A stretch of DNA of 64,000 nt from Octopus vulgaris (Eukaryota). Positions 3,467 through 43,228 of this stretch are shown one piece after another. Each line of letters opens with the position of its first letter. The first letter of the stretch is position 1. The notes under the pieces are model-generated. The model did not search any database, was not told the origin of the DNA, and worked only from the letters and a program-made list of their open reading frames with translations. Position numbers and translations under genes: made by a program. The DNA lies in assembly GCA_951406725.2 (NCBI GenBank), contig OX597830.1, positions 12,152,001 through 12,216,000 of the forward strand. The letters are read 5' to 3'.

Positions 3467-4528
3467 AGGGTGATATGTTGCTATTTGTTTGGTTTATTAA
3501 GAAGTGATTTTATTTTATGTTATGTATTGATAATTAATCAGCCCGTTGATAAGTATTTCCCTTGTAATTATTACTGGAAATGATATATATTGGATAGAAA
3601 TTTTTATGTTGTATATAGGTGAGGCATGTAGACTGAAAGTGAATGATAAATGATTGATGATTGATGCCATTTGTGTAAGTATGGTGGGGAGGGTTGGGGT
3701 TAAAGTTGAATGACTGTTGGTTGTTGAAAAGAAGAAAAGGTGTAGGATAGATAGATACATGTGTGTTGATAGACTGAATTTTGTTAAGGGATTTGTCAAC
3801 ACACTGTGGGAGGTGAACTGTTAGGAAGCTTTTGAATAAACAGTTTAGGGATGCATAGATCTCATGAAAGAAATGGATGAAGGCTTTACTGACGCTCAGC
3901 GAAACTATAATTTTCTTAATAGATCCAAAGTGTGTGAGCTAATGGGTCCATAGATTTCATTTTTTAAAATCTTAAAATAAACAGACTTTCCCCAACTAGG
4001 ATTATGTAAAGATATCAGATTAGCAGATTTGTACAACCTGAATAACCTTAAGACAGATGCGATTAGGAAACTACTAATAAACATATTTAACGAATAAAGT
4101 CTAAAAATAACTATGAACACTAATTTTTGAATCACAAAATCTTTAGACATTACATTAAGCTTGACTTCAGGTAACAATTAAGATATAGTTTATATAAACA
4201 ATGACTCTAACCATCTTGTCACAGTTATTAAAATATAAAGATGCATTCAATCTATTCTCCAATAGGAATATATTCAGTTGAGCTGTACTCTTCTATAATG
4301 ATGTATGAAGAAGAAACAACTACAAAGAAAAATAAAATGGAAATCTCACAAAACTGTAGAGCTAAGAAAAGAAGTGTGATGCAATTTATCCCTAGTCCTA
4401 AACATAAGTGTAGGTTCTAATTTAGGACTTACTTTCTTGTCCTTAATAAAATACATTTTCCTGTTACACATAAATATAATAATCTTTTCAATAAACATAT
4501 ACATACATATAATTGTATATACACATAT

Positions 4529-16959: not shown

Positions 16960-17922
16960 ATCCCGTGGTCAGGCTGCACTGATTTGGAGGTCTTGGTCTT
17001 CATAAGGGTCCATCCCTCTCTCTCCACTGCTTCCTTTCCTCCAGCCACACCTGCTCCACCCTAGTGAGCAGCATCCTCTCCTCTCTAATATGGACCAGTT
17101 CCAACTGGGAGTTGGATGAAGCTCTCCAACACTAGCAGGAATTGGGTTTGTCTGCTCCTGAGAAGGTGGAGGACTTTCAGGCCCACAAAGCTTGGGACAA
17201 CATAATTTCGAAAGCCACCTCCAACTCCCTCCTCATCCAGTCAGACCAGCTTTCAATGTGCCGCTTACTATCTGTTAGCGCCAACTACTCAGGTGACTGG
17301 ATTGATGCCATCTCTGTGGCTAATGTTGGTGGCCTACTCAGCTTGGATGAACTTCGTGTCTCCATTGCCCTTAAAGTGGGAGCTGATGTATGCACGGGTT
17401 CGATCTGTCATTGTGGCAGGCTCCTCGACCCCACAGGCCTTCGTGGCCTTTCTTGCTACCTGAATGCTGGTTGCTTCACACGTCATACGGAGTTGAACCT
17501 GATACTCATGAGGAGCTTGACTTGGGCAAACATCCCCTCCATCTTGGAACCATCTGGATTGTCCAAATGCGATGGAAAGAGACCTGATGGCCTAACTCTG
17601 TGCCCCTGATCGGAAGGCAGATGCCTTGTCTGGGATGTCACAGTTAGCAACTCCTTTGCTTCTTCTCACATCCTAGACACTGCGGTCAGGGTGAGATCTC
17701 AAAATCCTGAAATACCGCAATCTGTCAGCCAACTACATTTTCCATCCTGTGGCGCTTGGTGGGCCCTGATCCCTAACTGCGAGATTCCTGTCTTCACTGG
17801 CAATTCACCTTGCAGAGGTGACTGATGAGGCTCGTGAAGGCACATGGCTGTTCCAGCACATCAGCCTCGTCATCACCTATGGCAATGCTGTCAGCATGCT
17901 GGCATGCCTTGATAGCCATTAG
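16960..17922 (+). mobile_element. CRE-clade non-LTR retrotransposon 3' fragment (zinc knuckle and restriction-like endonuclease)
   Basis: SGDWIDA...CHCGRLLDPTG..GLSC....RHTELN...EPSGLSKCDGKRPDGLTL..*SEGRCLVWDVTV; contains stops and frameshifts. Confidence 0.8.
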
Positions 17923-18816
17923 AGAGGTTTCCCAGTGTCCCCAACTTTTCAACACAAAGTGGTGAATTGTTTTGGTTTTTTTCTCTTTTTTCTCATTTTC
18001 TCTCTTTTTTTTTCTTCTTTTTACTTTTTAATTTTCTTTCAATTGGGTTCTCTGTTTTGTCGAATTTTCTAAATTTTGTTCAATGGTAAACATCGATATA
18101 TTTTAAAAGTAAATGTTATAAAAGTAAATCTTTATCTGTCTGTCTCCCTCCCTCTCTCTCTCTACATATATATGTATTTATATACACACATATGTATATA
18201 AATATATGTGTGTGTGTATGTATATATGTATGTATATATGAATTTAAATACAAATACACAAACAGATACACAAATCTTATTAAGATGAAACAGTATGAGA
18301 AGAAATAATGAAGAAATAATTTGGTACATTTAAATCAAGTATTTAAACTAAGATATGGATATAAAGCATGTATGAAAGACAATCACATTTGTGTATTTGG
18401 TATTTACTTTGATGATAGATTAATTCTTTTCTAATGGATTTAGTAACTTTAATTCATATGTAGTAGGAAATATTTTTAAATAGGTTGTAATTTAAAAAAA
18501 AATAATTATACTTTTGTATATATATATTCAATGTTTTAAGGTAGCTAACTCGTGCATTGAAATTGAATTAGTCACTCAAAACAAAATATGCCTCTGATCC
18601 AAGTCTTCAATTTCCTTTTTCCATTTGAAATTTACATTTTCATTTTCTAAAGGAAAGTATTAAAATATACAAATATTTGAAGAAAGATTATTAAAATATA
18701 TTTTGTTTGCTTTTGTGTTATTTTTCTTTAAGCATATTTGTTGCTTAATAATTTAGATGTAGAAATATATATGCAAGCATCAATATGTACAATGCGCACA
18801 CATGCACATGCACAAA

Positions 18817-23350: not shown

Positions 23351-26078
23351 AGATAGTTACTGTCTACCAAATCCACTCTCTGAGCTTTAGTCAGCCCAGG
23401 CCTAGATTATAATCCTAGATTATAAGGGTGGAAGCAAATTTGACTCAGCTCCACATGGGCATTTAGGAGATGTACAACTCAGGTGTTTGAAACCTTACGT
23501 ACATATATGTATTGATATATGTATGTATGCATGTATGTGTATGTGTGTGTGTTTGTATATATACAGCATTATCATCATCATCATCATCATTTAACGTCCG
23601 CTTTCCATCTGGCATGGGTTGGATCGTTTGACAAGAGCTAGCAAGCCCAGAAGGTTATGCCAAGTTCTATTGTCTGTTTTGGCATGGTTTCTATGACTGG
23701 ATGCCTTTCCTAATATACACATAAATTCAAAATGCATATATTTATGTATGAAATTTTAAAAATATTGTACAGTTTTTGTGTAATTTTATTTTATGTACTC
23801 AAGTATTACTGCTCGCATAAAAGAAGCATTTGAATTGTCCTGTTTATTTCTCACTTGTTCTACTTTCTGTGTTCATATCCCATCAAAGTCAACTTTGCCC
23901 ACCACCTTTCCGGGTTTGCTAAATTTAAGTGCCACTGATTTAATTTACTCCAGTGTATATTGTCTCCTAGTGTTTTTCATGCATGTCACACCCAACGAGA
24001 TGTCTGAGCAAATATTTTAGGTGGCCACAACATTTGTGAGAGGAGGAACTACTCCCAGCTATTTTGAAACTACTCCCAGCTATATTGAAACACATAATGA
24101 TAGAATAACGCCACCCCAATCCTATACAGAAGGATGTTGTGCATTTGTGTGTACAAGTGCAAACTTTTAACAAATAGAAACTGAAGAAAAATGATTGCCC
24201 ATTGTGTAGGTGTATGCACCATCAAGCTATGCTTCCTGGTGTTTGGTGAGTCAACAAACATTTGTCCTGTGCTGTAGTACTTATTCCAGAGTGGCATAGA
24301 AGAAGTTTTGCTTGTGACTATTGGGCAGTGATGACCCCTTGGTGATACTGAGGCTACAATAAACATCTATTATGTTAATAGGAATTTATGAAACATATTT
24401 TCACTTCATTTATCAGTTAAGCTTTACAATAATTACATTACTTAAAATAAATTTTTATGCTAAAAACAAAAAAACAAATTGAAATATTTTTGTTGTTTCA
24501 ACAGATACATGCGTGTTTGTGTGTGTATGTGTGTGTGTGTGTGTGTGTGTATCAAACTATAAATCATTTGATAAAGTATATTTTTATTATTTTGAAAAAT
24601 TTTTATTAACAGTTGTTATAGTATTTTTTGACAAGTTGGATCTCATTGATAGTTATGTGCTTTTTCAAACTTTGCTTTATTTTTCAAAGAAGCAAAATAT
24701 AGGCAATTATCATTTCTTAATTTCTTTTAAATTCCCTTCAGAAAAAGCATGGAAAATTATTTTAATGAATCCTCTTTCAAATTAAAACAAAATCAATACT
24801 TACACTTAAAAATTATTACCAAATCAGTCTTCTAATTTTTAAAAATGTTTATTCTCTCTATAATACATTACCTAGTAGTATACTTGTCACAAATATCTAT
24901 CTATATAAGATACAAATTATAAGAAATAAAATTCTGTAAAAAACGGAAGACTATTTAGTTCATTTGGCTATACTTTTTTGGAAAAAAAAAAACTATATTA
25001 TATCACTTTTTTCATCCTCTTCAATACTATTAAAATTTTGAATGAACTAAAATATAAGCAGAAGGAGGGCAAATGGCTTTTAAAGCTGAGAGAGTATCAA
25101 AAGGTGTTGCTTTTGGCAGCAAAATTGACTTTTTCCTAGATTTGGCCTAGAGCATGGTATAGTAGGTACTCTAACATTGCTTTTATGGCTCTTTGAGAGA
25201 GTTGGCCAAAGACAGGGCTACTTGTATATCAATTAAAATCATCTTAATAAAAGAAGCAGGAAGGTAGTTGAATGCATGTGGCCCTCTCTAGATGGCTGGC
25301 TGTCTGTTAAATGGCTATTAACCCTAACCATACCTTAGATTATGCTACCTTTTCATTTCACATCTATTCATTCCAGGTCACTGTGTTTCATATATTTATG
25401 GTTACACCTTGCAAAACTTAACATTTTTTTGTGGAAAGTAATGTAAATAAATTCATCGATTTTTACATTCATGTACATATATTTGAACCATAATGAAATT
25501 AAGATAACTGATTAAAAAGTAAATTGACTTCACATCTCACTATTCTACCGTAATGATTATAAAAAGTCATTTAGTACTTACATTTAATATTTTAGATATT
25601 ATGTGTTAAAATCTTGACTTTAGCTAAATTACTGTTCTTCAGTTTATTTTTATACATCATTTGTACTTCCCACAAGAAGCTCTTAAGTTTTGTTTGACTT
25701 TCCAAGCTTCAGCACGGATGGTATTCCCGTTCCAAGTGCTAAATTGATTTAATTTCTTACTAAATTCTTATGTTGCTTTTGTTTTTGTTCTATCCTCCTA
25801 TCAACATGTTTTAAATACTTTCTTGATGTGAACACCACTGGCCGTTATTTTTCATAGAACATCTTATTTTATTTCAACTTTAATTTACTTGTGCTTATCT
25901 TTTAAACCCCACTTGATCATGTTGCATCATATTCTGTACTGCTGCTGCTGCTGACCAATCATCTGGTGTCTATTGCAGATGTATGTTTCTTATGTAGTTA
26001 CTAACATTTGTGTCCTGTGTAGTTGCACTTCGTTTTGTCTTTGTCTAATACTGATCTCCCTCTCCCATTTTTCTACAG

Positions 26079-26331
26079 CATGGAAATGCATAAGAATTTG
26101 ACCCTTGACCCGGCCTCAACCCCAACAACCACGTCCTTGACCTCTGTTCAGTCCCATCATCCCTTGGCCATCCCGCTGAATCAGTTGGTGAAACCAATGC
26201 CGTATTTAAATGTCCCAGGTGTATTCGACCTGAATAATGATCGCAAACATTTTACGGCCAAAATGCGGGTTGGGGTGACGGCTAATAGTGCATTGAAGAA
26301 AGTGGAACGAGCAAAATTTGCACCTTACTAA
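26079..26331 (+). CDS. PCBP: Alternative terminal coding exon of a PCBP/mub-family KH-domain RNA-binding protein: (S)MEMHKNLTLDP...SALKKVERAKFAPY*
   Basis: Strong acceptor ctccctctcccatttttctacAG (AG at 26077-26078) with an upstream ctaat branch-like motif. GC-richer open frame of about 84 codons entering in phase 2. The start (SMEMHKNL) and the basic-rich K/R-F-x-PY end resemble, from memory, the long C-terminal isoform of Drosophila mub (SVELQKANL...RKFNPY). No search was run. Confidence 0.8.
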
Positions 26332-26842
26332 TGTTGAAATACCACATCTACTTCTACTAAGACTTTCTAGTTCACTTGAAATGGAGTCATCCAAGATTTT
26401 CCTATGTGTGAAGACAACTATATTTATTGACAGACATTATAGAAGAAAAATGGAAAAGATTACAGTAATTGAAGAGGATGTTATTTGTCTAATATCCACA
26501 AATTTACTAGCTGAGGTCTATATTTTGTAGAAAGATATGTGCAAGATGCCAAAAATTTTTTTCTGTAAATGTGTAAAAAGTGAAATAATGATGGAATGAA
26601 GTGATAATAATAAGATATCATGTTTTGGTTTACCTACAATGGACATTTTAACAATGTAGGCCCATCTCCAACATTCCAATTATGTTGTCAGTCAGAGTAC
26701 TTTTCCTTACCAACCTTTATACCAATGCATTTTCAATATTCATTTATTTACTTCCATTATGTTTAATCACCTAATAAATTTGATTATTATGCTTTTTAGT
26801 TTATCATTTTGATTGATATTGTTACCACGGCTACCATTTTTG

Positions 26843-26845
26843 TTA

Positions 26846-26926
<81 letters not shown>

Positions 26927-27058
26927 CATTATTATTATTATTTATTGTTGCTGTTGTTATTGTTGTTGTTATTGTTGTTGTTATTATTATCCTCCTCATC
27001 ATCATCATCGCCATTGTCATCATCGCCATCGTCATCATCATCATCATCATCATTATTA

Positions 27059-27089
<31 letters not shown>

Positions 27090-27104
27090 AATTATTATTA
27101 TTAC

Positions 27105-27146
<42 letters not shown>

Positions 27147-27160
27147 CATCATCATCGTTA
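26843..27160. repeat. (TTA)n/(TTG)n/(ATC)n compound trinucleotide repeat between the two PCBP terminal exons
   Basis: Direct inspection. Confidence 0.95.
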
Positions 27161-27583
27161 TTCACTATTTTTATTTCATAGTTTTTGTAACATTGATATT
27201 TCAATAAAAGAAATGAATATTGAAATATATTATATTAGCATGTAGTTTGCACATTTTAAACTGGTGAATTTGTCTAGTACTTACTCAGTTGGCATGAGTT
27301 TTTAAAGAATAAATTACATTTTTACAGTATATAATCAACATACAAAACTTATTTTAATTAGAGCTATCTCCATTTTAACAAAAATTCTATGGATCATTTT
27401 AATATCTCATATCTATTTAAACTGACTGAACAACAAATTTGTGGAGATACCCTGGTATTTGTTTTCCTTGTTGATGTCCATTTTTCTTTTACTTTTTACT
27501 TTCATGTCACTTATGATTCTATTCCAAAGAAATTCTCTCTGCAGTTGCCCTGCAGCCTGAAGCGTGATTTTGTGTCTTTGTAG

Positions 27584-27620
27584 GATAACAACAGAAGTTT
27601 GTGGAATGGGAATTCGCTAG
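27584..27620 (+). CDS. PCBP: Alternative terminal coding exon of PCBP: (R)ITTEVCGMGIR*
   Basis: Acceptor ttttgtgtctttgtAG (27582-27583), same phase 2 as the 26079 exon. The peptide matches the vertebrate PCBP C-terminus after KH3 (recalled: PCBP3 ARLTSEVTGMGTL*, PCBP1 ARLSSEKGMGCS*). Confidence 0.8.
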
Positions 27621-28926
27621 GTAGATGACGTTTGGACCATTTAAATATCGAGATCACGAAAAGCCACTACAGCAATCTGATCTACTGTTATTCATAATGT
27701 TTATGTCTTATTTCATACATTTTCACGTGCTTGATCATGTGTACATTTAGTTAATCATTGTGTTTACCTACAACTATTTTCCACTGTGTTCTGTGTGAGC
27801 TACTGCGTTTGAGCACTAACCAAAATTTGTGGTGATGTTGGAATGTTTACCCTATCAAGTAGAAGTTTAGTTGCACCTATTTCTTAAAATATCCTGCAGT
27901 TAGAGTGGAGCGCTCAACCTTAATGTTGGCCAATATTTCACTCATCTAAATACTTAAGTCTCTGTGTGCTAGTGTGTGTGTATGTGATTTGCATGTTTGC
28001 ATACTTATCAACTTACCTTTCTAACCTTTTAGATAATATATCAATTCATATAGTAACTGAGTTGTTATTAAAACTGATGAACTTATCTGAATACATGATA
28101 CATCTACATTTATGCAGATGTATCCATGTATATACCTTTAGGTAATGATATAAATAAAGTGATAAATAAAATAAAGTAATAAATTAAATAATGTAATAAA
28201 TTTTCAATCAAATTTGCAATTGTAAAACTTAAGTCTCCAATACTTTATATTTTAATTTTATTTTCTGAGGTACTACTTTGATAATTTTATATAAAAAAAT
28301 ATCTGTGGTGTTTATTATGAAAAAATCAAATTGACTAATGAACAGAACTAGAATTTAAAATGTTCCTATATTGATAATCTAAATCCCATTTTTGTTACTA
28401 GTTACTCGGAGAAATCTTATACAATTATAAGTAGCAAATGAGGTGTATTATGATGACAAGTGTTCATAAATATTGATATCTACTTAAATACATAAATATA
28501 TATTGTGTACAAACATATACACACATACACACCACTCACACACACATTATCTATAAAATTAACCTCTACATATGTGCAGTTTCTTATGTGTAAACACAGA
28601 CCAGAGTTTGCCTTGCTTGCTATTTTATAGTATCAAATATTTTAGAAAATTTACATCATGTAATAATACATGTTGTAATAGAAGTAGTTCATTATAGTAA
28701 AAAATGTTTGCTTCTAAAACATACATTATTTTTATTGCAAGATTAATATCAGAAATCAAAGCATCTTATATCATAGTTCATCACATATGTCCTAAATATA
28801 AGTATATAGAAATTAGTTTACCTATATGTTGCTCTATAGTTATTCATAAATACTTTATTTACATACACATATTTGCATACATATGAATATATACATGCAC
28901 ATACACACACACACAGAGCAGATGTG

Positions 28927-28971
<45 letters not shown>

Positions 28972-29530
28972 ATTTGTGTGTGTGAGTATATATATATATA
29001 TATATATACATATATGTATGTATAGTCAGTCGATTCAAGGATAATTAGGGATTGATAAATCCGAAATTTCACTGGTTTAAGCTCCATCACATTAGAAGAG
29101 AGTTTCTACATTGTGTTATGGATTATAATAGGTAAAATTAATAATATAAGAAAATGGAGAGTTAAAAATGTATATTTAATTTATTTGCGACATAGTTTGT
29201 TTTTAAGAAATAAATATAAATAAAACCCTGAAGTGACTCTACAGCTTACAGCTTAAATACTTAACATTGGATTTAACTCAAATGTTTTGAATTATGTATT
29301 ACCGACGGGCTAGAATCGAAATATATGTAGGCTTCTGAGTCTTCTAGTGTGTTTTTAAAAATTTTATTTGTATTTATATCTTAAAAACAAACTGTGATGC
29401 AAATAAATTAAATATACATCTTTAACTCTCCATTTTCTTATATCACTAATTTTACATATACATACGTGTGTGAGTGTGTATATATATATATATTAATGCA
29501 TATATGTGTATATATATATATTTATGTATT

Positions 29531-29569
<39 letters not shown>

Positions 29570-29602
29570 TTATGTATATATATACATATATATGTGTGTA
29601 TT

Positions 29603-29648
<46 letters not shown>

Positions 29649-32600
29649 ATTATGTATATATGTATGCATGCATATATATAGATGTATATGTGTGTATATA
29701 ATATATATATGCTCTTGACAATTTTATACTAATGATGTAGACACATAAAAATATAGGTAGATTTGTTCATGCTACCCAGTTATTTTACTATTAGAAAATA
29801 GTCTAGATTTACAAGTTCAACCAAAATAACTCTAAACTAATAAATCACTCTTATTATTCTTTATGTATGACTATTTTAATTTGGCTAAAAGTGTGTGCCA
29901 TTCTATGATGAAATATGCTTAAACATATCGCTCATAATTCATGCATACAATTAAAATGGTGATCTCATTTAACCATTTGTACAAATATACATACAACGAA
30001 ATGTCTCTTGGACTTTAGTTTTCCTTAAACTATCACCGTTGTCAGGTGAAGTGAGACAGTACATTGATAGTGTATATAAATGATTGCAACTTTATTCTAT
30101 TTCTGTTAGAGACAATTTATATTTATATATTACTTCATGTGTGTAAATGTTTATCTCTTCTGATGTACACACACACATCATACCAAATCTCTCACATTCA
30201 TGTGTTGTATATATCAGGGTTTATTTCTTGGGGTTTCTTGATTCATTAATGAAATGTTTTCCAACAGCTGAGTCCATTTTAAATGGAAAATAAAAATCTA
30301 AAAATTCTTACATCTATTTAAAAACGTAAATGGCTTATTTTCTATTATTCTTTTCTATGATCAAGCTGTGCCAGATTTAAATCAGATTGCTGTTGAAATG
30401 TAAGCGACCAAAGAGACTAAAAACAAAAAAATTATTTAAAACTTTCTACAATTCGGTATTGTGTTGATAGATGATTTCTTTGTCAGCTCTTTATTTCTTG
30501 TGGCTGGGGTATGTTAATTAAAGTTATTTGCGAAGAAAGAAAAAAACAGCAAACAAACAAAAAAGAACAAAGATCATTTACTTTTCTTTGAGGATATCAC
30601 TTATAGAAAATATCTAATAGTTAAAATTGAATCTATTTGATGAATAACTGTAAACTAAAATTGAATTTATGATACTGATAAATACAGTATTATTTTTATA
30701 TTATAATTTGATGGGAGGAGCAAATTTTGTACTATTTCTTTAATTTTTGTAGTTTTTGCAAAATTAATTTGATAGTACTAGATGATATTTTCAGATTTAG
30801 TAGTATGAAATAAAATAAATTCAAAATGGTAAACATACCATTTCATTCCTTGTTGTAAATAAAGGGATGTAAATTAACTGTCAATAATATTTTGTTTTTT
30901 GTCTTCTCAAAAAGCATTCCTGTAAAGCACTTGTAACTACACCTTGATATCAATCACCATTTCATAATATTGTGAATGTAAACAAAAAACTTTTATCTTT
31001 TTTAACATAAAATAATATTTCAGCTCAAAATATATTTAGTTTGAAAATTAATTAATTATTGGAGTCATGGGCCAATACTTATCTTTAAAAAATATTGATT
31101 ATAAATATTTCTATTGTTAAAACTATTAGTTACCTGTGTAAATTTGACAACTTACGTTTGATAAAGCATGGTGCACCACAGTCCTTTTGATCTCTTAGAA
31201 GAAGCTACATGTGAACAATCAAAACTGAGGTATTTCTTTTGAATTCTATAATCTTCAAGGAATATATTATTTAAAAATTTAGGTTTATATCCATTTGAAC
31301 TATCTGCACTGTAGTTGCCTAATGGTTGTGTGGTTTGTAAATTTCTAGTTGGTTCTTCTTGGTAAAGAATGATTAAAATAAATTCTTTTACTCTTCAAAA
31401 GTCTTCTTATTTATCTGATAGTAGTAGTTTAAAATTTGAACATTTGCTCAACTTATTTTTCCATTCTGTCTTCCTTAAAAATGTATAAATTCTTTCTTGT
31501 AAAAATTTGTTTCAAAAATAAATTATCAGTATGGTTGTTAAGAATGGATGTTATAAAACAAGAAAGATTATAAATAAAATATTGAGAAGATTATTTTTTT
31601 ATCTTTGTGCCAAATATGGGATGTATTTGTTATTTTGATGTATGAATTTTGCAAATAATTTATCCCAAGTAGATCATATTGACTATTTTATACATTTTAG
31701 AATTTCTATAATAATTATCAACTTAAAATTTGATATCGCACACTTGAAATGTGTTGATTCATGTAAGCAATAAATCTATTCAATCTAACGGTAGCAAGGA
31801 AAAAAAATTAAGACTTCTGAGTTTTAAAAAGTTTTATCACTTTTATTTTGTCTTATTGCTTTCTAATTGTGATACCTTTGTGTGATATCTTTGTGATATT
31901 TTGTTATGTCAAGTGTTGTCTGTTGCATTTCTTGTCTGCATTGTTAAATTTAGTTAATATTGTTTGTACTATATGCAAAAATCCATGTAGTAGCTATAGA
32001 AGTAGTAAATATTCAGTTTGACAAAAAAATTACCATTATGAATGGGCTCAGCTCTCATTAATACTTAACAAAAATGTGTGCTCAGCAACAATTGCATTAT
32101 TTTTTAAATTGCAGTCTATCAACATTTTTATTCTCTTTCTCATTAAATTACAGTTCATATATTTTGTTGTATGTTCTCCTTTTTAGTGTTGTCCATTTAC
32201 TTCATAATTTACATTTCAGAATAGTATGTAATATTACTACTCTGAGAGTATTCAGTTTTCTTTTAAATTTATTGTTGTTAATAACATTATTTTTGCACTG
32301 TCTTATGAGAGTGATCTTTGGTTATTTATTGGCTCCATTTGGCAGAGAAATACAGAGTTAAAGTATTAATTAAAGAAATTGTTATTGCTGGAAATAAAAC
32401 TACAAGTAACGTGATGGACAGAAATATCAATTTTCAATGACAGATTATGTTAAGATATGTTTTGTTTTCCCAGAACAGAAAATATCACTTTACAAAAAAA
32501 AAGTAAATCAATAAATAAATACAGAAAAAAGAAAAAAAAAAGAAAAAGAAAAGAGCAACAAAAAACAAAAAAAGCTGTCAAAAAAAAACAAAAACAAAAC

Positions 32601-33400
32601 TATAAATATTATATTCTTCAAGTTGGGATAAATAGTCTATTCAAATGTTTATCAGGTTGATGATAGTAATGATGCTGATGGTTGTGGTAGTAGTCGTGAT
32701 GTTGGTGAAGAGGATGATAACAATGATAATTATGTTGAAGACTAATAAAAAAAATTAGTTATCAATACTAACTACATATATTTACATTATATTTTTTGCC
32801 TGTAAGTTTTTTTTTTTGTCTTTCATCATTAAAATTCTATAAAGATCCCTCACTAATGGAAACAAAATTTGGCTTTGAAAGACTATCAAAATGTTTTCTC
32901 TCCATTTTAATGATCACATAATGCTTAATAAACATAAAACAAAAACTAAATGTGAGTTGTAAATCACCACAAATGTACAGCTATCAATGTAAATTGTGCA
33001 AAACACTGTTCCTGAATATCTTTTTTGTGTCTTCTGAAATAGATTCTTCTATCAAAATCTCAGAAAATAATTTTATTGGTTAACTTTCCATTATGTACTT
33101 TTATTATTTATATTAAGGAATGAAATAGGTATTCACTTTCAAATTTTCACATTTTTCTCTAATTATAATTTTTGTAATTGTATTTTACATAAAATGTATT
33201 TTGATATTTTATACTTATTTATGGAAATTGAAACATGAAATATTCTCTGCTTGTGTATTCAAGAAATTCAATTGGTTAAATGAGATCCTGTGATAATTCA
33301 TGAGCCAATGAAAATCTATGCATTGCACTTCGCCTTAGAAGCACCAGCTCTTTTACAATATTTTTTTCTCTTAAGCTAGTTTGCTGCATTATGCCTTATG
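27621..33400 (+). other. Probable long 3' UTR or constrained intronic region of PCBP
   Basis: Almost free of SINEs and LINEs compared with the flanks, and U-rich on the + strand. AATAAA cluster at about 28150-28185, further AATAAA near 31770 and 32927. TGCATG and ACTAAC motifs present. Boundaries are approximate. Confidence 0.4.
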
Positions 33401-33544
33401 ATGAGGGAGTAAAGTCATACCAAGGAGTCAAAATAGGATAGAACTAGGTACTCTCACCTTATATTAGATAAATTCAAATTAAGTACTTACCTATTTGACT
33501 ATATTACATATATAAACCTTCAAGTCTAACTTTGTACTGTTGTA

Positions 33545-33566
33545 AGCATATGTACATATATATATG

Positions 33567-33608
<42 letters not shown>

Positions 33609-33723
33609 CATACATATTTGTATGTGTGTATGTATATATACATACATGCATGAATCTCTGTGTATGCATATATATATATATATGTACATAATGTATGTAT
33701 ATGTAAACCATACTAATATCATA

Positions 33724-33761
<38 letters not shown>

Positions 33762-33819
33762 CATGTATGTATATATGTATTTGTATATATATATATGTAA
33801 AACATATAATATCATAGGT

Positions 33820-33850
<31 letters not shown>

Positions 33851-34077
33851 GTATATATATGTATATATGTAAAACATATAAAACATCATAGGTTCATAGG
33901 TATGATATGCTCCATGCTTGAAAAGCTTGGTACTCTCAGCAACTTTTGTAACTTTCGGCCAATTAAATATATGTATTCCCATGCATTCGGGTCAGTTCCT
34001 TCTCTCAAACCTATATTGTATCTTACACACACACACACACACACATACACACACACATATATATGTATATGTGTATT

Positions 34078-34114
<37 letters not shown>

Positions 34115-34292
34115 GTTTATCAAATTAAATATACAATAGAAAGAGCTACTAATAGTTTCATGCTATTATGATACTTGAGCAGACATATATATAAAATAAT
34201 GTGCCATGTATCTTAAAGCAGTCTTTCAGGCTCCGTTTATCTATTTTATATATATATGTTTATATATACATATATATATATATATATGAACC

Positions 34293-34325
<33 letters not shown>

Positions 34326-34605
34326 GTGTGATTGTGTGTATATATATATTATAACAATGGTCCTTCGCACAATTTCCATCGAGCAAATTTCAACCAGGAG
34401 CTAATGGTCAAGTGGAGGCTATGGCACAGTTTATGCACTGGGATTGAATTCCAAACTAGTTATCCATGTCTCTATTGACGTATATGTGTGTGTGTGTGTG
34501 TGTGTATGTGTATATATATATGTATATATATGTGTGTGTATGTGTATATGTGTGTATGTGTATGTGTATGTGTGTGCATGTGGATATATATGCATACACA
34601 CACAT

Positions 34606-34656
<51 letters not shown>

Positions 34657-34836
34657 AGAGAAATGGGACAAAGGAAGAGTGAGAGAGTGAGAATATACAT
34701 ACATATATATATTTGTATATATGATATAAATATATATTGTATATATAATTATTGTTTAAATATTATGTATTTGTTTAGTGAAAGCATGATACAATCAGTG
34801 AATTTATCCTTGAGTCTGAGTGATGGTAGTAGTAAT

Positions 34837-34882
<46 letters not shown>

Positions 34883-34979
34883 TATACACATATATGTGTG
34901 TATACATATTTAATATATATTTATACATTGCGTACATATATATATATATATTGAATGTATATATATTTATATACACATA

Positions 34980-35026
<47 letters not shown>

Positions 35027-35135
35027 TTATATATGCATGTGTATATATATATGTGTGTGTAGACATATACATGTATGTATTTATGTGTATGCACATACAC
35101 ACACACACACACACAAATATGTATATATATTGTAC
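33545..35135. repeat. Extended TA/TG/CA microsatellite-rich block
   Basis: Direct inspection. Confidence 0.9.
34142..34234 (-). ncRNA. Hammerhead-like motif with variant core CUGAAAGA and long stem II
   Basis: Minus strand reads GGAGC-CUGAAAGA-(long stem with UGCU/AGCA and GAUAC/GUAUC)-GAAA-CUAUUAG-UA-GCUCU. A related copy lies at 46376-46453. Confidence 0.4.
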
Positions 35136-35730
35136 CTAAGTGTAGCTGTGTGAGCAGTGCTTGTAAAAATTTTATTAAACATTGTAAACATTTTATTAAA
35201 CCAATTCATATTCAAGACCTCAAAATTCATAAAACTCTTCATAAATTGTCATAGTTTTAAAAATTAAATTTCGTATACTTTTTGTTTTTGTATGGAAAAT
35301 CAAAGTGAAAGAGAAAAAATTATATTCTTAAGTGTTGTAACTGAATATGACAAATAGATATCCGATATCCATACTCACAAATGTTTTTGTAGTAGGGTGC
35401 TTTGCTGTGAATAACGTTTGTTATATTTGTGTTTGTTTTATAATACATGTATATTATTTCAACATTGTTTGAGATTCTGGTGAATTTATAAAAAAGCAGA
35501 TATGATTATACAGTAGTTATATATTTTAACATATTCTATTATTTTAATAAAGTTACATGTTTATTTTTTATTAATGTTTGGTCCCTAATCTATAAACTCT
35601 ATCGATCTAGATCTGTTATATAGGAAATTTTAAAAGTTTATTGGAAAATTAGCAGTAATCTACCTTATCTTTGACTCTACTAATCATTAAAATTATATCT
35701 AATTAACTTGGATCATAATATCGGTGCTGT

Positions 35731-35810
<80 letters not shown>

Positions 35811-35845
35811 GGATATGTGTGTTTGTGTGTGTGTGAGTGTGTATG

Positions 35846-35891
<46 letters not shown>

Positions 35892-35952
35892 TATATATAT
35901 GAACATAAATTCTATCATCTTTTAAAATATCATTTTTTCTTTTCTTTAATAG

Positions 35953-35965
35953 GTTATGGCTTTGA
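35953..35965 (+). CDS. Candidate alternative terminal exon: (R)LWL*
   Basis: Strong acceptor cattttttctttctttaatAG|G (35951-35952), followed by about 2.5 kb of repeat-free UTR-like sequence. The peptide is too short to verify by homology. Confidence 0.4.
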
Positions 35966-37170
35966 TCTTGTGCAATTATGACAAATTGTTAAATAATGGG
36001 GGTTGTGAACATTTCAGCTTGTTCTTTCCTTCTAAGGACTAACATCAGCTGATGTACATCTTTTGAACCAAGTTTGTGCCTTTTTGCAATGCATTCCTTT
36101 TTCTAGTAGATTGATTGTCAATTGACGACAGCACTGCATGTGCAATAAAGACACAAGCCCTATCAAAGCAAACATACCTTTACAAATATAACTTATTTTT
36201 ATAAAACAATTTGAAATCAAGAATAGAGTTAAAATTATAATGGATTTCTATTAGAAACATTGATCTCTTGAAGAATGTTGAAGATTTTTCATTTTGAAAA
36301 CCACTGACAATCCAGAGAAAATTTCATTAAAATTTTCTGAAATGGACAGTGCTCATCTTGCTGTCAACTAGTATAGAAACTGGTATTCAGACTGCTATTA
36401 AACATACGAATTATTTAATATTTATTAAAGTTCAGAAAAATGTTCAGTTTTGTCAATACTATATTTTGTCTTCAGAAATCATTATTGAATAATCATATTA
36501 GTAAAAAGAAAAGAAAAAAAAAGAAAGCAAAAATGTGTAAAAGGAAAGCAATAGAGAGCCTAAATGTTGTTCAAGTCATGATTACTCTACATTCATTCAA
36601 ATACCAAAATTAACTTAGTGATGTTTCTAAGCAAAGAAGTTAACTGGAGTTTCATAAATGAAAACAAAAGTCATTAAGAAGTCTTATTCCTTTTTATTAG
36701 TTTACAATATCTTTTATTTATAAGATATTTATACTTTAAAGTTTGGGACTTGAAAATTATTTAGCAATCATTGATTTGAATTTAATTTTTAATACCTGTT
36801 TTCAATAGTTTAGAAATTGACTTTCCTTCTGTACCTTTTCTAAAGAGAACTAGTCAAAATTTAAAATAAGGATGCCACTGTTTCAATAACTGTGGCCTTT
36901 ACAAATGTTGTGTGTTCCTACTTTACACTTTTAGACATCATGAATGCTTGTGACCATCAGTTTTTATTTGTATCCTGCACTAACTTTTATTTTAACTTTT
37001 GGTCCTAATAATTTACTTTCTTCAAACAATAATATTTAAATCATAATCTGTTGTTATACCATTTCATATAATTTTTAAAAACCTATTTTAATTGTTATTT
37101 ATATTTCTGGTCTGCACAGTTATTTTCATTATTTTTTACTGCATTGTTGCATGTGGAATTTGACTATTAG

Positions 37171-37264
37171 GTTGGAGCTATGCCACTCTCAATCTGCCTT
37201 GTCTTGCTGTTGTGCATGTGATCAAGCACATTGTCATGCCACATGCAGACACATTTTTTGTTAA
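37171..37264 (+). CDS. Candidate alternative terminal exon: (R)LELCHSQSALSCCCACDQAHCHATCRHIFC*
   Basis: TAG|G at 37168-37171 opens a 31-codon phase-2 frame in a GC-richer island. The pyrimidine tract is weak. The region takes part in long-range complementarity (see findings). Confidence 0.3.
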
Positions 37265-39579
37265 AAGAGCTACATTTAACTGGTCATTTCACAAAATACA
37301 TTTTAATACAAATTCTTACATAAACATATAACTGTAAAGCCATATAAAAACAAAAGAATAAAAAAAAAATCATGTAAAGTTTTTTTAAAAAATTAAATTA
37401 ATATTTAATCTTTTTTTATATATATCCTTTTGAGTAGAGGTATATTTAATTATCTAAAACATTCTATAGCAGTATTTAAAAAATAACAAATATAAATGAT
37501 CTCAGCAAAATTTCATTTGACTTTCTACACCTTAAAATGAAAATTGCACTAAATATCTTTCTAATTAATATTAACAGCTATGATATTATAATCTATTATA
37601 GTTAATTAAATCTAATGCTGTATATGACAATAATATCATGGTAAGATTTTATTTCATAATTTTAAATCCAATTATATGAACAGTTGTGTATTAAGATTTT
37701 CTAAAATAAAATTGATATTTTAATTTAAATTTTGCAATTAATTGCATTACAAATGATTATACAATCCAGAATATATTGTATGATATCCAGATATTTAAAT
37801 AACTGGAATTAGATGCTACAAGATTATTGCTCCCATATAAAAGAAAATTATTATTTTAAAATCTTTATTCATACACATGATATGTATTTAAATTTTTATT
37901 ATGATTATATTATGGATTTTAAAGTAGATAAAGTTTTTTTTTCTTTTTGTCTGAGATTTATATTTCATAAGTATTTTATTTTAAGGAAAAATAATTTTTG
38001 TCTCAAAATAATTTTTTCCAAAAGTGTTTTACCAAATTTATTAATTTTTTTTAATATAATCTCAAATATTTTTGTTCATTTTAATGAAATGTATTATTTC
38101 TTTTCCTTAAACTATAAACATTTTCTGAAATGCTTTAGTAGATTGATGATAAATAGTGTACAAAATGTTTATATAGCTCAGGTATGTTATATTAGTTAAA
38201 AGTAAATTTTGGTTTCAAATATTTAGATTAAAATTATTCACCAAAATACCAGTATTATTATGTAAAAGATTATTATTTAATTTTTTATTATTCTAAGTTA
38301 ATGTTCAGGTATTTTTTATAGCTAAATATGAATGTGTTAGTTTTTGTTTTGAAAAGCAAAGCTAGAATAATTATTGTGATTTCTCTGTATTATTATTTTG
38401 AATGAATTAAATTTAACGAAAAGTGCAAATTCATATAGTATTTATTTAAACATTCTGGATATAAATACACAGGTATATAATTATATTTATGCACACTATT
38501 ATCAATAAATATATAATGGAAATGATGCAATATGTGTGTGTGTGTGTGTATGTATTATTGAGATAATATACTATTGGTTATGATATATAACTATTCAGAA
38601 TGTTACCATCAGTTTTGTGTTCAATATTGATGACTATTCCAACATTCTGGCTGGAAGTGCATAGTCTCAGTAGGCTAGCGTTATATACACCTGGCCAACC
38701 TGTCTTTAGAGTTGCTAATATTGTCCTGTAGTAAGGTAGCGAGTGAGCTGCCAGAATTGTTACTGTGCTGGACAAAATGCTTAGCAGCATTTCTTCCAAC
38801 CTTGTGTTCCGAGGTGGACTTTGCCTTTCTTCCTTTCAGGGTTAAGATAAGCACCAGTTGAACACTGGGGTTTATGTAATCTACTTAGCCCCACTCCTGT
38901 AATTGGTGGCTTTGTGTGAAAATTTGAAACCAATATTTGGTGAGAAACTGATGGCAACATTCAGACCAATAATATCCCATAGCCAGTAATAAATATATTG
39001 TTTGAGGATATAAAAATATATATCTGTCCTATAATGTTGAGTGTGCTTTTATTTCTGACATATGGACTAACTGGAAATACATAGAAACTTACATATATAC
39101 ATACTATGTATGTACATACATACATGCATACATACATACATATATACATACACATACATACATACATATATATATATACATATATATATATATGTACATA
39201 TATGTGTATGTATACATACACATATATTTATGTATGTGTGTGTATATGTATATATATATATCACATGCACACACACACACACACATATAGTGCTGTATCA
39301 TGCAAACATTCTAATATAGTAACTGAATAATGGTGGTATGAAAAATTGTTTTCTATTTAGCAATGTAAGGTGTTTTCATTTTGTATGTTTTTGTTCAGAA
39401 TTTTAGTTTTATATGGTTTATTTCCTGTCTATACACATATGTAAGTGTGCATGTATGTATTTATGTATGTACATACATATGTGTGTGTGTTGTTGGCCAA
39501 TGATCCAGAGAACAAGTATTCAGTATAAATTTGGAATGCAACAGATTAAGCTAATCAAGTGGCCTGTTACACTGGAGTT

Positions 39580-41564: not shown

Positions 41565-43228
41565 GCGAATATATTTTCAAATAAGAATTAGGTTCATTCT
41601 TTCATTACCCATATAATGATGCATATTTCCAGTTTTTTAAACATTTAACAAACAAAAGACAAGTTTCTCTCTCTGCATTTGATACTTGTTTATTACAGGT
41701 AATTTTTATCCCCTTAACTTCTCTCTGTGAGAAGTGATTCGGAATTGAATCTGCTACTCAGAGTCTCACAAGAATATGTTCAGCTTATAATCACTCAAAT
41801 AACAACAGATGAGCTGGCAATCAGATAATTTATCCACTGGTCATTTTGCTAATACAAAGAGAAACAATTAAAAATTACTTTAATTAAAATGTTATTTAGA
41901 TTGCAAAACAAAACTTTCATATTCTCATGTTTGAAAAATATATCAGTTTATATATATACATGCACACACATATATATGTCACTGTATGCATATATATCTA
42001 TATCTACATATATATATATATATACATACATACAAGTGTGTATTTGTGTGTGTATTTTCAAACTACCTCATTTGTTATGAAGAAAGCACTTCTTTAATCT
42101 TAGTTTTATTAATTATTGGCTATATATGGCAATCTATAAAATCCTAATAACCCTTTAATTTTTCATTGTGGTATGTGCAATATCAAAACATTATCTTCTC
42201 TGCTTTTCTATAGATTACATTCTGATAAAAGTAATTTTATTTTCATTAATATATATTTTTTATTATGGTGAGTTTTTTTTTTATAATACAGTAACTTTGA
42301 GAAATAAATCTGTGATCCAGTTTTGTTTCCCATTTGAAATTTCTTTAATTATGTTATTAATGCCTCTCAGAGAGGCATTAACATCAGAAATTCCCATATT
42401 CCACTTTTTATTTTTTATTATTTTCAAAAATCTATATTAAGTGTAAATTGTACTTTACATTTAGTTCTATGACCTGAGATTGCTAGTTCTGAAATGAAAA
42501 TGTGTCTGCTTGGCAAATTACTGGAAGTTGATTGAATCATGATGTATTTGTTACAAGGAGAGTTATTTTGATTGTTTCCATTTATTCTGAATATTTCTAT
42601 TACTGGTCCTGGAGCACTGCAAAGATAACAATTAAGTGTAAATCAGACAGCTATATGAATGTACTGCCAAAGATGGAATAAATTTTGATTATTTATCAAC
42701 AATATCCTATTTTTTGAAATTTATTTAAAAAAATTTATGTTTAATTCATTGAGAAAATTTCACTCTTCAAAAAAAGTGCAAATAGGCCCAAATGTGCCAC
42801 CTGTTTTAAAGCCATCAGCCCAGCATTGAAGATAACATGATTTGACATGCTCATTCTGACTGTATTTTTCCTTGTGTAGTGTCACTCTTAGTCAGAAGAT
42901 ATAAGTGGAAAAGACTACATAGTGGATACCAAAGGCCAGAGAGGACCAGGATGCAGCTACATTGGTAACGCCTTAATAAACTGCTCTATTAATTGATAGC
43001 CATGCATTCCTTCTTTTCCTTCAGAAAGCACAAAATTCCAAGACACTCACTGCAACCACCAACTTCTTATAGACATCAAAGTGGCAGTTTCCAATGACTC
43101 CTGATTTCTAGTTTCATTTACCTCTTTAATAAAGAATTACACAAATAAGAAAGTGCTGCAACTCTGGAATTAAAAGAAATCTTCTTGATAATTCTCCCTC
43201 CCCTATGCTAACATTTATGCACTATAAA

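Follow-up and report, generated by a model that had tools for sequence, protein, structure and literature searches.

The 3' end of the Octopus PCBP gene lies on the + strand of the window analysed here, a 64,000-nt stretch of Octopus vulgaris DNA (contig OX597830.1, positions 12,152,001 to 12,216,000), with the KH exons upstream of it. Two sites in this window, A (27727-27745) and D (37211-37229; all coordinates are window positions), are complementary across 9.5 kb and probably form a real long-range pair in the RNA. Our preferred, still tentative, reading is that A-D is the outer clasp of a folded PCBP last exon of ~9.8 kb and not part of a three-way exon switch.

A predicted helix joining the ends of a probable long last exon

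An earlier note on this DNA had given the sequences of four sites, all of which were found in place, and had described A-D as 19 contiguous base pairs (bp), 16 Watson-Crick and 3 G-U. This pairing was confirmed at -28.6 kcal/mol, or at -32.7 kcal/mol with a 4-bp extension (helix H1, 19+4 bp). The features concerned are:

27584..27620, + strand: alternative last exon 2, coding part (R-ITTEVCGMGIR*), the tail of Octopus isoforms P0082 and P0087
27727..27751, + strand: site A, 5' arm of H1, 106 nt past the stop and 143 nt past the 27584 acceptor
37206..37229, + strand: site D, 3' arm of H1, with TGCATG at 37213 and a second TGCATG at 37148

Both sites lie outside recognisable repeats, as previously claimed: the surroundings of A (279 nt) and D (201 nt) matched only themselves genome-wide, an 18-nt pattern covering A and D occurred at four genome places, two of which are A and D themselves, and Rfam gave 0 matches in 25-44 kb. 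Apart from the arms of an inverted-repeat element at 29132-29455, no gapless long-range helix in the masked 25-38.5 kb surpassed A-D, and D was the best partner of A within 141 kb. Local dinucleotide shuffles of this repeat-masked interval produced a helix as stable as A-D in 1/81 cases and a gapless run of at least 19 pairs in 59/81, and the 19-bp length alone is thus ordinary. In natural sequence (40 control loci of 10 kb), 8/80 strands had a best helix at least as stable as -28.6 kcal/mol (3/80 spanning >1 kb), a rate that is understated because the controls retain less unmasked sequence. Taken singly, A-D is only modestly unusual. That all three deviations are G-U had been put forward as a sign of selection on the sense RNA. 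Among 16-of-19 inverted matches in the controls this pattern occurred in 2/117, on either strand; since a gapless RNA helix search picks it by construction, it is not independent evidence, and we dropped this weak argument.

When local structure and a loop penalty were considered, H1 was estimated at -8 to -9.5 kcal/mol, and it was present in the minimum-energy fold of the entire 27584-37375. Shuffling the first and last 200 nt of the exon 4267 times, or 400 nt 1922 times, never reached a stability of -28.6. Pairing stop-codon windows with poly(A)-hexamer windows gave 2/165 combinations below -20, both of which hold A-D.

As a local hairpin or pre-miRNA, D was rejected (z -1.08, matched by 31/200 shuffles). 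Across D, at 37171-37264, lies a 31-codon frame rich in Cys and His, opened by a candidate acceptor; that this frame has no protein match is weak evidence.

Further predicted helices nested inside H1

Additional predicted duplexes lie between the two arms of H1:

27896..27929, + strand: 5' arm of H2, pairs with 37163-37197, -30.2 kcal/mol gapped
37163..37197, + strand: 3' arm of H2, also a local hairpin, covers the candidate acceptor 37171
29024..29055 with 34794-34825, + strand: H3, -28.6, arms bordering microsatellites, outside the 9 duplexes counted below
29949-29979 with 33269-33298, + strand: H4, -28.9
30041-30073 with 32284-32315, + strand: H5, -25.7
30266-30286 with 32033-32053, + strand: H6, -28.0
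30835-30863 with 33104-33132, + strand: H7, -29.2, crosses H5 and H6

Shuffling the 200 x 200 nt within H1 matched H2 in 6/467 cases, and the 5' arms of H4-H7 had no dispersed-repeat matches. A seed-and-extend scan of 25-38.5 kb returned 13 duplexes of -24 or better, two or three of them with low-complexity arms, against a mean of 4.1 in shuffles, none of which (0/398) exceeded 11. Under stricter masking of 27.5-37.5 kb there were 9 such duplexes vs 1.9 +/- 1.2 expected (0/150 shuffles), and the top 8 included a nested chain of five with A-D outermost, which was again found in 0/150 shuffles. Even without H1 and H2, the interval 28.0-37.1 kb held 4 duplexes vs 0.83 expected (6/688 shuffles). 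The corresponding counts in natural sequence were made on the 19 of the 40 control loci that had at least 5.4 kb unmasked (38 strands), which reached at most a 2.8-fold excess over shuffles vs 4.7 here; one of the 38 has a chain of five. Along the locus, the ratio at 28-38 kb was the highest of 17 scan windows.

Common dispersed repeats, as defined on 40 random loci, are missing from this region: none occurs in 23715-38738, a run of 15,024 nt vs 4,627 nt for the next longest. Repeat cover is 0% in the exon, 17% in the upstream intron and 27% downstream. The inverted-repeat element at 29132-29455, with 57-bp inverted arms around ~210 nt, resembles a short transposon of the non-autonomous kind. 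Inside the proposed untranslated region (UTR) it would fold into a long hairpin, and it is a candidate editing substrate.

A probable far 3' end just past D

Four sequencing runs (X4, X20, X21 and X23) were mapped to 35905-37520; none of the runs is recorded as RNA, and that X4 is RNA is a guess. An X4 contig covers 36157-37368 unbroken at a depth of 95.1 and the next begins at 37364 with a depth of 8.7, an about elevenfold drop that is plausibly a poly(A) site. Another X4 contig reads across the acceptor of a minor last exon at 35953 unspliced, with no joint listed. Together with the repeat-free zone, the depth drop and this read-through fit a last exon of ~9.8 kb, from 27584 to ~37370. Site D lies 127 nt upstream of the AATAAA and 139 nt upstream of the drop. 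The proposal in the earlier note depended on a pre-mRNA that reaches 37.2 kb, and the X4 contigs and annotated isoform exons at 42880 and 43025 indicate that it does; because isoforms use those two acceptors, some transcripts must pass D.

28153..28200, + strand: likely near poly(A) site, a cluster of four AATAAA (use inferred from sequence)
35953..35965, + strand: minor last exon R-LWL*, the tail of Octopus isoforms P0081 and P0090
37333..37390, + strand: probable far 3' end, with TGTA at 37333, TATAAA at 37343, AATAAA at 37357, ten A and a T-rich tract

Breaks between X4 contigs imply variant sites at 36126 (C, about half-and-half) and 36156 (A, about one fifth). The latter lies 7 nt past the AATAAA at 36144 and could be A-to-I editing.

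The PCBP gene and its alternative last exons

The identification of the locus as PCBP with an array of terminal exons was borne out by identity to Octopus PCBP3 and by mapping the isoform tails. A shared donor (...ACCAG|GTGAG) closes the last common (KH3) exon 22.6 kb before the start of the window. From the tails of annotated O. bimaculoides and O. sinensis isoforms, acceptors were placed at 4266 (RNIFS), 26079 (FAPY), 27545 (SCPAA), 27584 (RITTEVCGMGIR), 32346 (REIQS), 35953 (RLWL), 42880 (SVTLSQKI) and 43025 (RKHKIPR...); the tail RK was not placed. The eight located last exons are mutually exclusive and all join the same KH3 exon in annotated isoforms. The acceptor at 27545 is a second one for exon 2 and yields S-CPAA*.

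26079..26331, + strand: coding portion of alternative last exon 1 (S-MEMHK...KFAPY*), with 100% identity to Octopus PCBP3 isoforms
42880..43097, + strand: last exons beyond D, S-VTLSQKI* (42880) and R-KHKIPR...SFQ* (43025), from isoform tails

In a comparison of 92 proteins, the FAPY and GMGIR tails were present in abalone, limpet and scallop, and the remaining seven tails were seen in Octopus records only, which suggests that two of the last exons are old and the several others minor. Exon 1 has relatives in cuttlefish, abalone, chiton, limpet, scallop and pearl oyster, and the counterparts of exon 2 are RISTEVCGMGIR in abalone, RITTEMCGLGIR in scallop and RLTTEMCGMAVR in limpet. A metagenome scan found two loci from distant animals (L010 and L011), aligning in the FAPY coding part only; in the PCBP locus of the second (L011:3186-3230), an acceptor after the FAPY exon leads, read by eye, to RPVPIYETISTASC*. 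The sequence of L011 suggests that the two-last-exon layout reaches beyond molluscs. No related locus was found in a scan of prokaryote genomes; the exact 18-mer of D occurs in 13 prokaryotic contigs, which was taken as chance.

Several smaller features of the array were recorded. The GMGIR stop runs straight into GTAGAT (27618-27626 together), a possible weak donor that, if used, would put the stop at an exon junction. Protein P0010 links the FAPY exon at KMR|V (26270) to a (GAT)-rich stretch at 32656, and cuttlefish models break near the same KMR|V place; these may be prediction artefacts or reflect an internal donor. A TACTAAC at 25997-26005, which we take to be a branch-point consensus, lies ~75 nt upstream of the FAPY acceptor and ~75 nt downstream of site B (see below). 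In the long PCBP intron, ~17200-17930 is GC-rich and by eye resembles a decayed reverse-transcriptase retroelement end.

A proposed clasp that would shorten a 9.8-kb exon

If the helices form inside the cell, the folded exon could be treated as an exon of normal size. H1 would leave some 250-270 nt between the far poly(A) site and the RITTEVCGMGIR acceptor and stop, with a path of 143 + 127 nt from acceptor to far hexamer and of 106 + 139 nt from stop to tail. During nuclear processing, internal poly(A) signals and the minor acceptors at 32346 and 35953 would lie in the loop, and the clasp would couple the far site to the acceptor. Once the mRNA is cytoplasmic, stop and tail would be ~245 nt apart instead of 9,750, a shortening that would dampen the decay set off by long 3' UTRs. 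Of these two roles, we consider the stop-to-tail one slightly the more likely. The clasped path of ~245 nt would be of a size typical for octopus, whose median 3' UTR is 350-380 nt (PMC9699675), and would lie below that median. The short form ending near 28.2 kb would lack D and need no clasp. As D is transcribed 9 kb past the near poly(A) cluster at 28153-28200, it more likely serves the finished long form than opposes the short one.

A stronger version of this proposal is a natural multi-helix fold-back, in which a 9.8-kb 3' UTR is zipped by at least five nested helices and read as a 250-nt UTR, the TGCATG sites being a possible latch. We consider this version unlikely. If true, octopus PCBP would offer a naturally occurring counterpart of the engineered fold-back against nonsense-mediated decay.

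A number of observations weigh against the clasp. The evidence for it was drawn from one genome, and scans for orthologous DNA over A or D found none, which keeps the clasp tentative and chance a somewhat unlikely account. On D itself, the runs X20, X21 and X23 (from other organisms) gave short AT-rich partial matches only, which are evidence neither way. A-to-I sites in the helices had been suggested as a test, and the X4 contig is unbroken at D with no differing letter, so strong editing there is not seen. The terminal windows and the 27.5-37.5 kb interval used for duplex counts were chosen after the helix was known. An outer 10-bp helix beyond H1 was at chance level (40/669 shuffles) and was rejected. 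A local hairpin competes with H2 (net -6.5), and the 25 helices of longest span in the whole-exon fold do not include H2. As for the duplex excess, 7 of the 38 control strands outdo all six of their own shuffles, making the shuffles a lenient null; 8-18 kb (by count) and 38-48 kb (by nesting) also beat all 20 shuffles; and the minus strand is in excess as well (7 vs 1.2, 0/150 shuffles). Watson-Crick complementarity gives an excess on both strands, and strand therefore does not favour RNA over DNA. The 3' end at ~37370 comes from one run whose RNA nature is guessed, and the depth drop falls on an A-rich tract, where oligo-dT internal priming would look alike. Poly(A) hexamers are frequent (119 in 42 kb), for which reason the nearness of D to AATAAA means little alone. 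One RNA continuous from 27584 to ~37370 is inferred, the mapped reads covering 35905-37520. Lastly, engineered fold-backs protected fully at 42 nt and progressively less at greater distances (PMC2689704).

Alternative explanations

The rival that survives best is the absence of any selected function, with A-D the strongest among many complementarities that arose by chance or survive as relics in AT-rich sequence, and the drop at 37368 a product of internal priming. We judge this somewhat unlikely. It is consistent with the equally stable helices on control strands (8/80), with the shuffles that reach 19 pairs (59/81) and with the duplex excess on both strands, and many such pairs are expected from a genome-wide scan. 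It does not account for the second nested helix H2 and the further excess inside, nor for a helix placed at both exon ends in a repeat-free zone. Within this reading, the complementarities are possibly patches of an old inverted duplication. The arm spacings are 175, 1133, 926, 93 and 212 nt on the left vs ~37, 2376, 1526, 984 and 250 nt on the right, and because they differ between sides, the arrangement is unlike a plain inverted duplication.

Alternatively, the helices could be a platform for proteins, either as Staufen-type duplexes for neuronal transport or as a bridge delivering the TGCATG elements (the Rbfox motif) at 37148 and 37213 to the GMGIR exon, where protein bound on D would open the clasp. 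Staufen1 hiCLIP and Rbfox RNA bridges are said to offer precedents. A 19-mer that, like D, holds one TGCATG and has a second within 100 nt or less is found at 52 of the 50,808 unmasked 19-mers of the window, a feature that was seen after the fact. In 3' UTRs, Staufen2 is bound to long-range duplexes that direct localisation to dendrites (PMC8657808). We regard the platform as quite unlikely: it leaves the position of the outer helix at both ends unexplained. The putative protein sites are compatible with the clasp reading.

The earlier note had proposed that D docks competitively with A and two further sites, as in a Dscam/PGRP-LC-type switch, so that mutually exclusive pairing of D with B, A or C picks the last exon spliced to the KH3 exon:

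25912..25926, + strand: site B, intronic, 153 nt upstream of the FAPY acceptor, shares CTTGATCATGT (11 nt) with A
35962..35974, + strand: site C, overlaps the R-LWL* stop

The B-D helix of 14 bp with one bulge was recovered at -15.4 kcal/mol (-17.8 in 24-nt windows). For C-D, 12 of 13 pairs are correct by count, of which RNAduplex keeps 11 pairs at -12.6. Among the partners of D in 25-37.1 kb, B ranks second and C third, but only A exceeds chance: when the duplex energies were set against a shuffled background, as the note had advised, A-D fell outside it (1/81) and B-D and C-D inside. A best partner as good as B was found in 142/348 shuffles and a second as good as C in 195/348. Estimated net intramolecular binding to D was near zero (-4.4 to +1.6 kcal/mol for B, -0.1 to +1.6 kcal/mol for C), and D was absent from the 9 best partners of B and of C in the 141 kb examined, the best local partner of B being 34396-34419 (-24.9). 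As B and C are at chance level and predicted not to form, the three-way switch is poorly supported, and B and C are probably bystanders.

Some points speak for a switch nonetheless. The last exons are mutually exclusive, A and B share 11 nt, and exons exist beyond D, so that B-D could loop out the near acceptors as in Nmnat (PMC2724269). D's two best partners after A each lie 200 nt or less from an acceptor, which 15/348 shuffles reproduce (6/348 with the energies), and this proximity is a hint only. Against the switch, selector placement is inconsistent, with B before, A after and C inside its own exon. D lies ~60 kb from the shared donor, is synthesised 9-11 kb after A and B, and stands beyond several poly(A) signals; the GATCAAG core was not found in the first 9 kb of the intron past that donor. 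Two other docking sites were rejected: no best partner of B or C was located near the donor, and at 36.1 kb both pairings were at chance level (25/144 and 279/361 shuffles). The docking switch is thus the least probable of the readings considered, and a very doubtful one.

Comparison with known systems

Far-site cleavage and the escape from decay of mRNAs with multi-kb 3' UTRs are a standing question, and this locus offers exact arms for mutation and rescue. Many RNAs are regulated by PCBP, whose two main C-termini are common across molluscs, so control of the tail would matter for cephalopod gene regulation. Literature searches, with most subscription journals outside their coverage, matched no paper to all terms for octopus RNA pairing, for mub pairing or for PCBP2 last-exon pairing, and returned no description of a natural fold-back pairing of such span.

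In the loops of human pairs of conserved complementary regions (PCCRs; Kalmykova et al. 2021, PMC8052449), which are long-range as well, transcript 3' ends and poly(A) clusters are over-represented. Those pairs are defined by conservation, whereas the octopus pair is known from one genome. Matching by gene name found no PCBP pair in the text of that paper or in the supplementary files searched, which may not contain the whole catalogue. Duplexes bound by Staufen2, such as that of Rgs4 (PMC8657808), are also long-range 3' UTR duplexes; the Rgs4 duplex spans 167 nt and was cross-linked, and the octopus pair spans 9.5 kb and is predicted only.

PGRP-LC, CG42235 and Pip (Pan et al. 2018, PMC6191721) resemble PCBP in that alternative 3' cassettes are spliced to a shared exon, and sites A and B resemble one another as the selectors of those genes do. 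In PGRP-LC, however, docking takes place by the upstream exon that the cassettes share, a selector lies upstream of each cassette, and the elements are conserved (PMC6191721); in the octopus gene the shared arm D is downstream and one partner alone beats chance. Closer in layout are box 1 and box 2 of Nmnat (Raker et al. 2009, PMC2724269), a long-range stem among alternative last exons with the 3' box upstream of a poly(A) signal and with acceptors looped out. A-D encloses the acceptors 32346 and 35953 and many hexamers, as in pairs of the Nmnat and PCCR type. The Nmnat boxes differ in being ~350 nt apart, conserved and rescue-proven, with box 1 intronic, ahead of the near acceptor (PMC2724269), whereas the octopus arms are 9.5 kb apart and A is within the exon, past its stop.

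The proposed stop-to-tail role has its counterpart in the engineered poly(A) fold-backs of Eberle et al. 2008 (PMC2689704), which suppress nonsense-mediated decay in human cells. Their design is like A-D, with one arm shortly past the stop and the other just before the poly(A) signal, and a helix of 26 nt there compared with 19+4 bp here. Those reporters are artificial, were used in human cells and carry the arm 42 nt past the stop (PMC2689704), whereas the octopus candidate is natural and predicted only, with an arm 106 nt past the stop, a 9.5-kb loop and nested helices. A-D is a probable long-range clasp on an unusually long 3' UTR and would be a variant of the known long-range 3'-end pairings.

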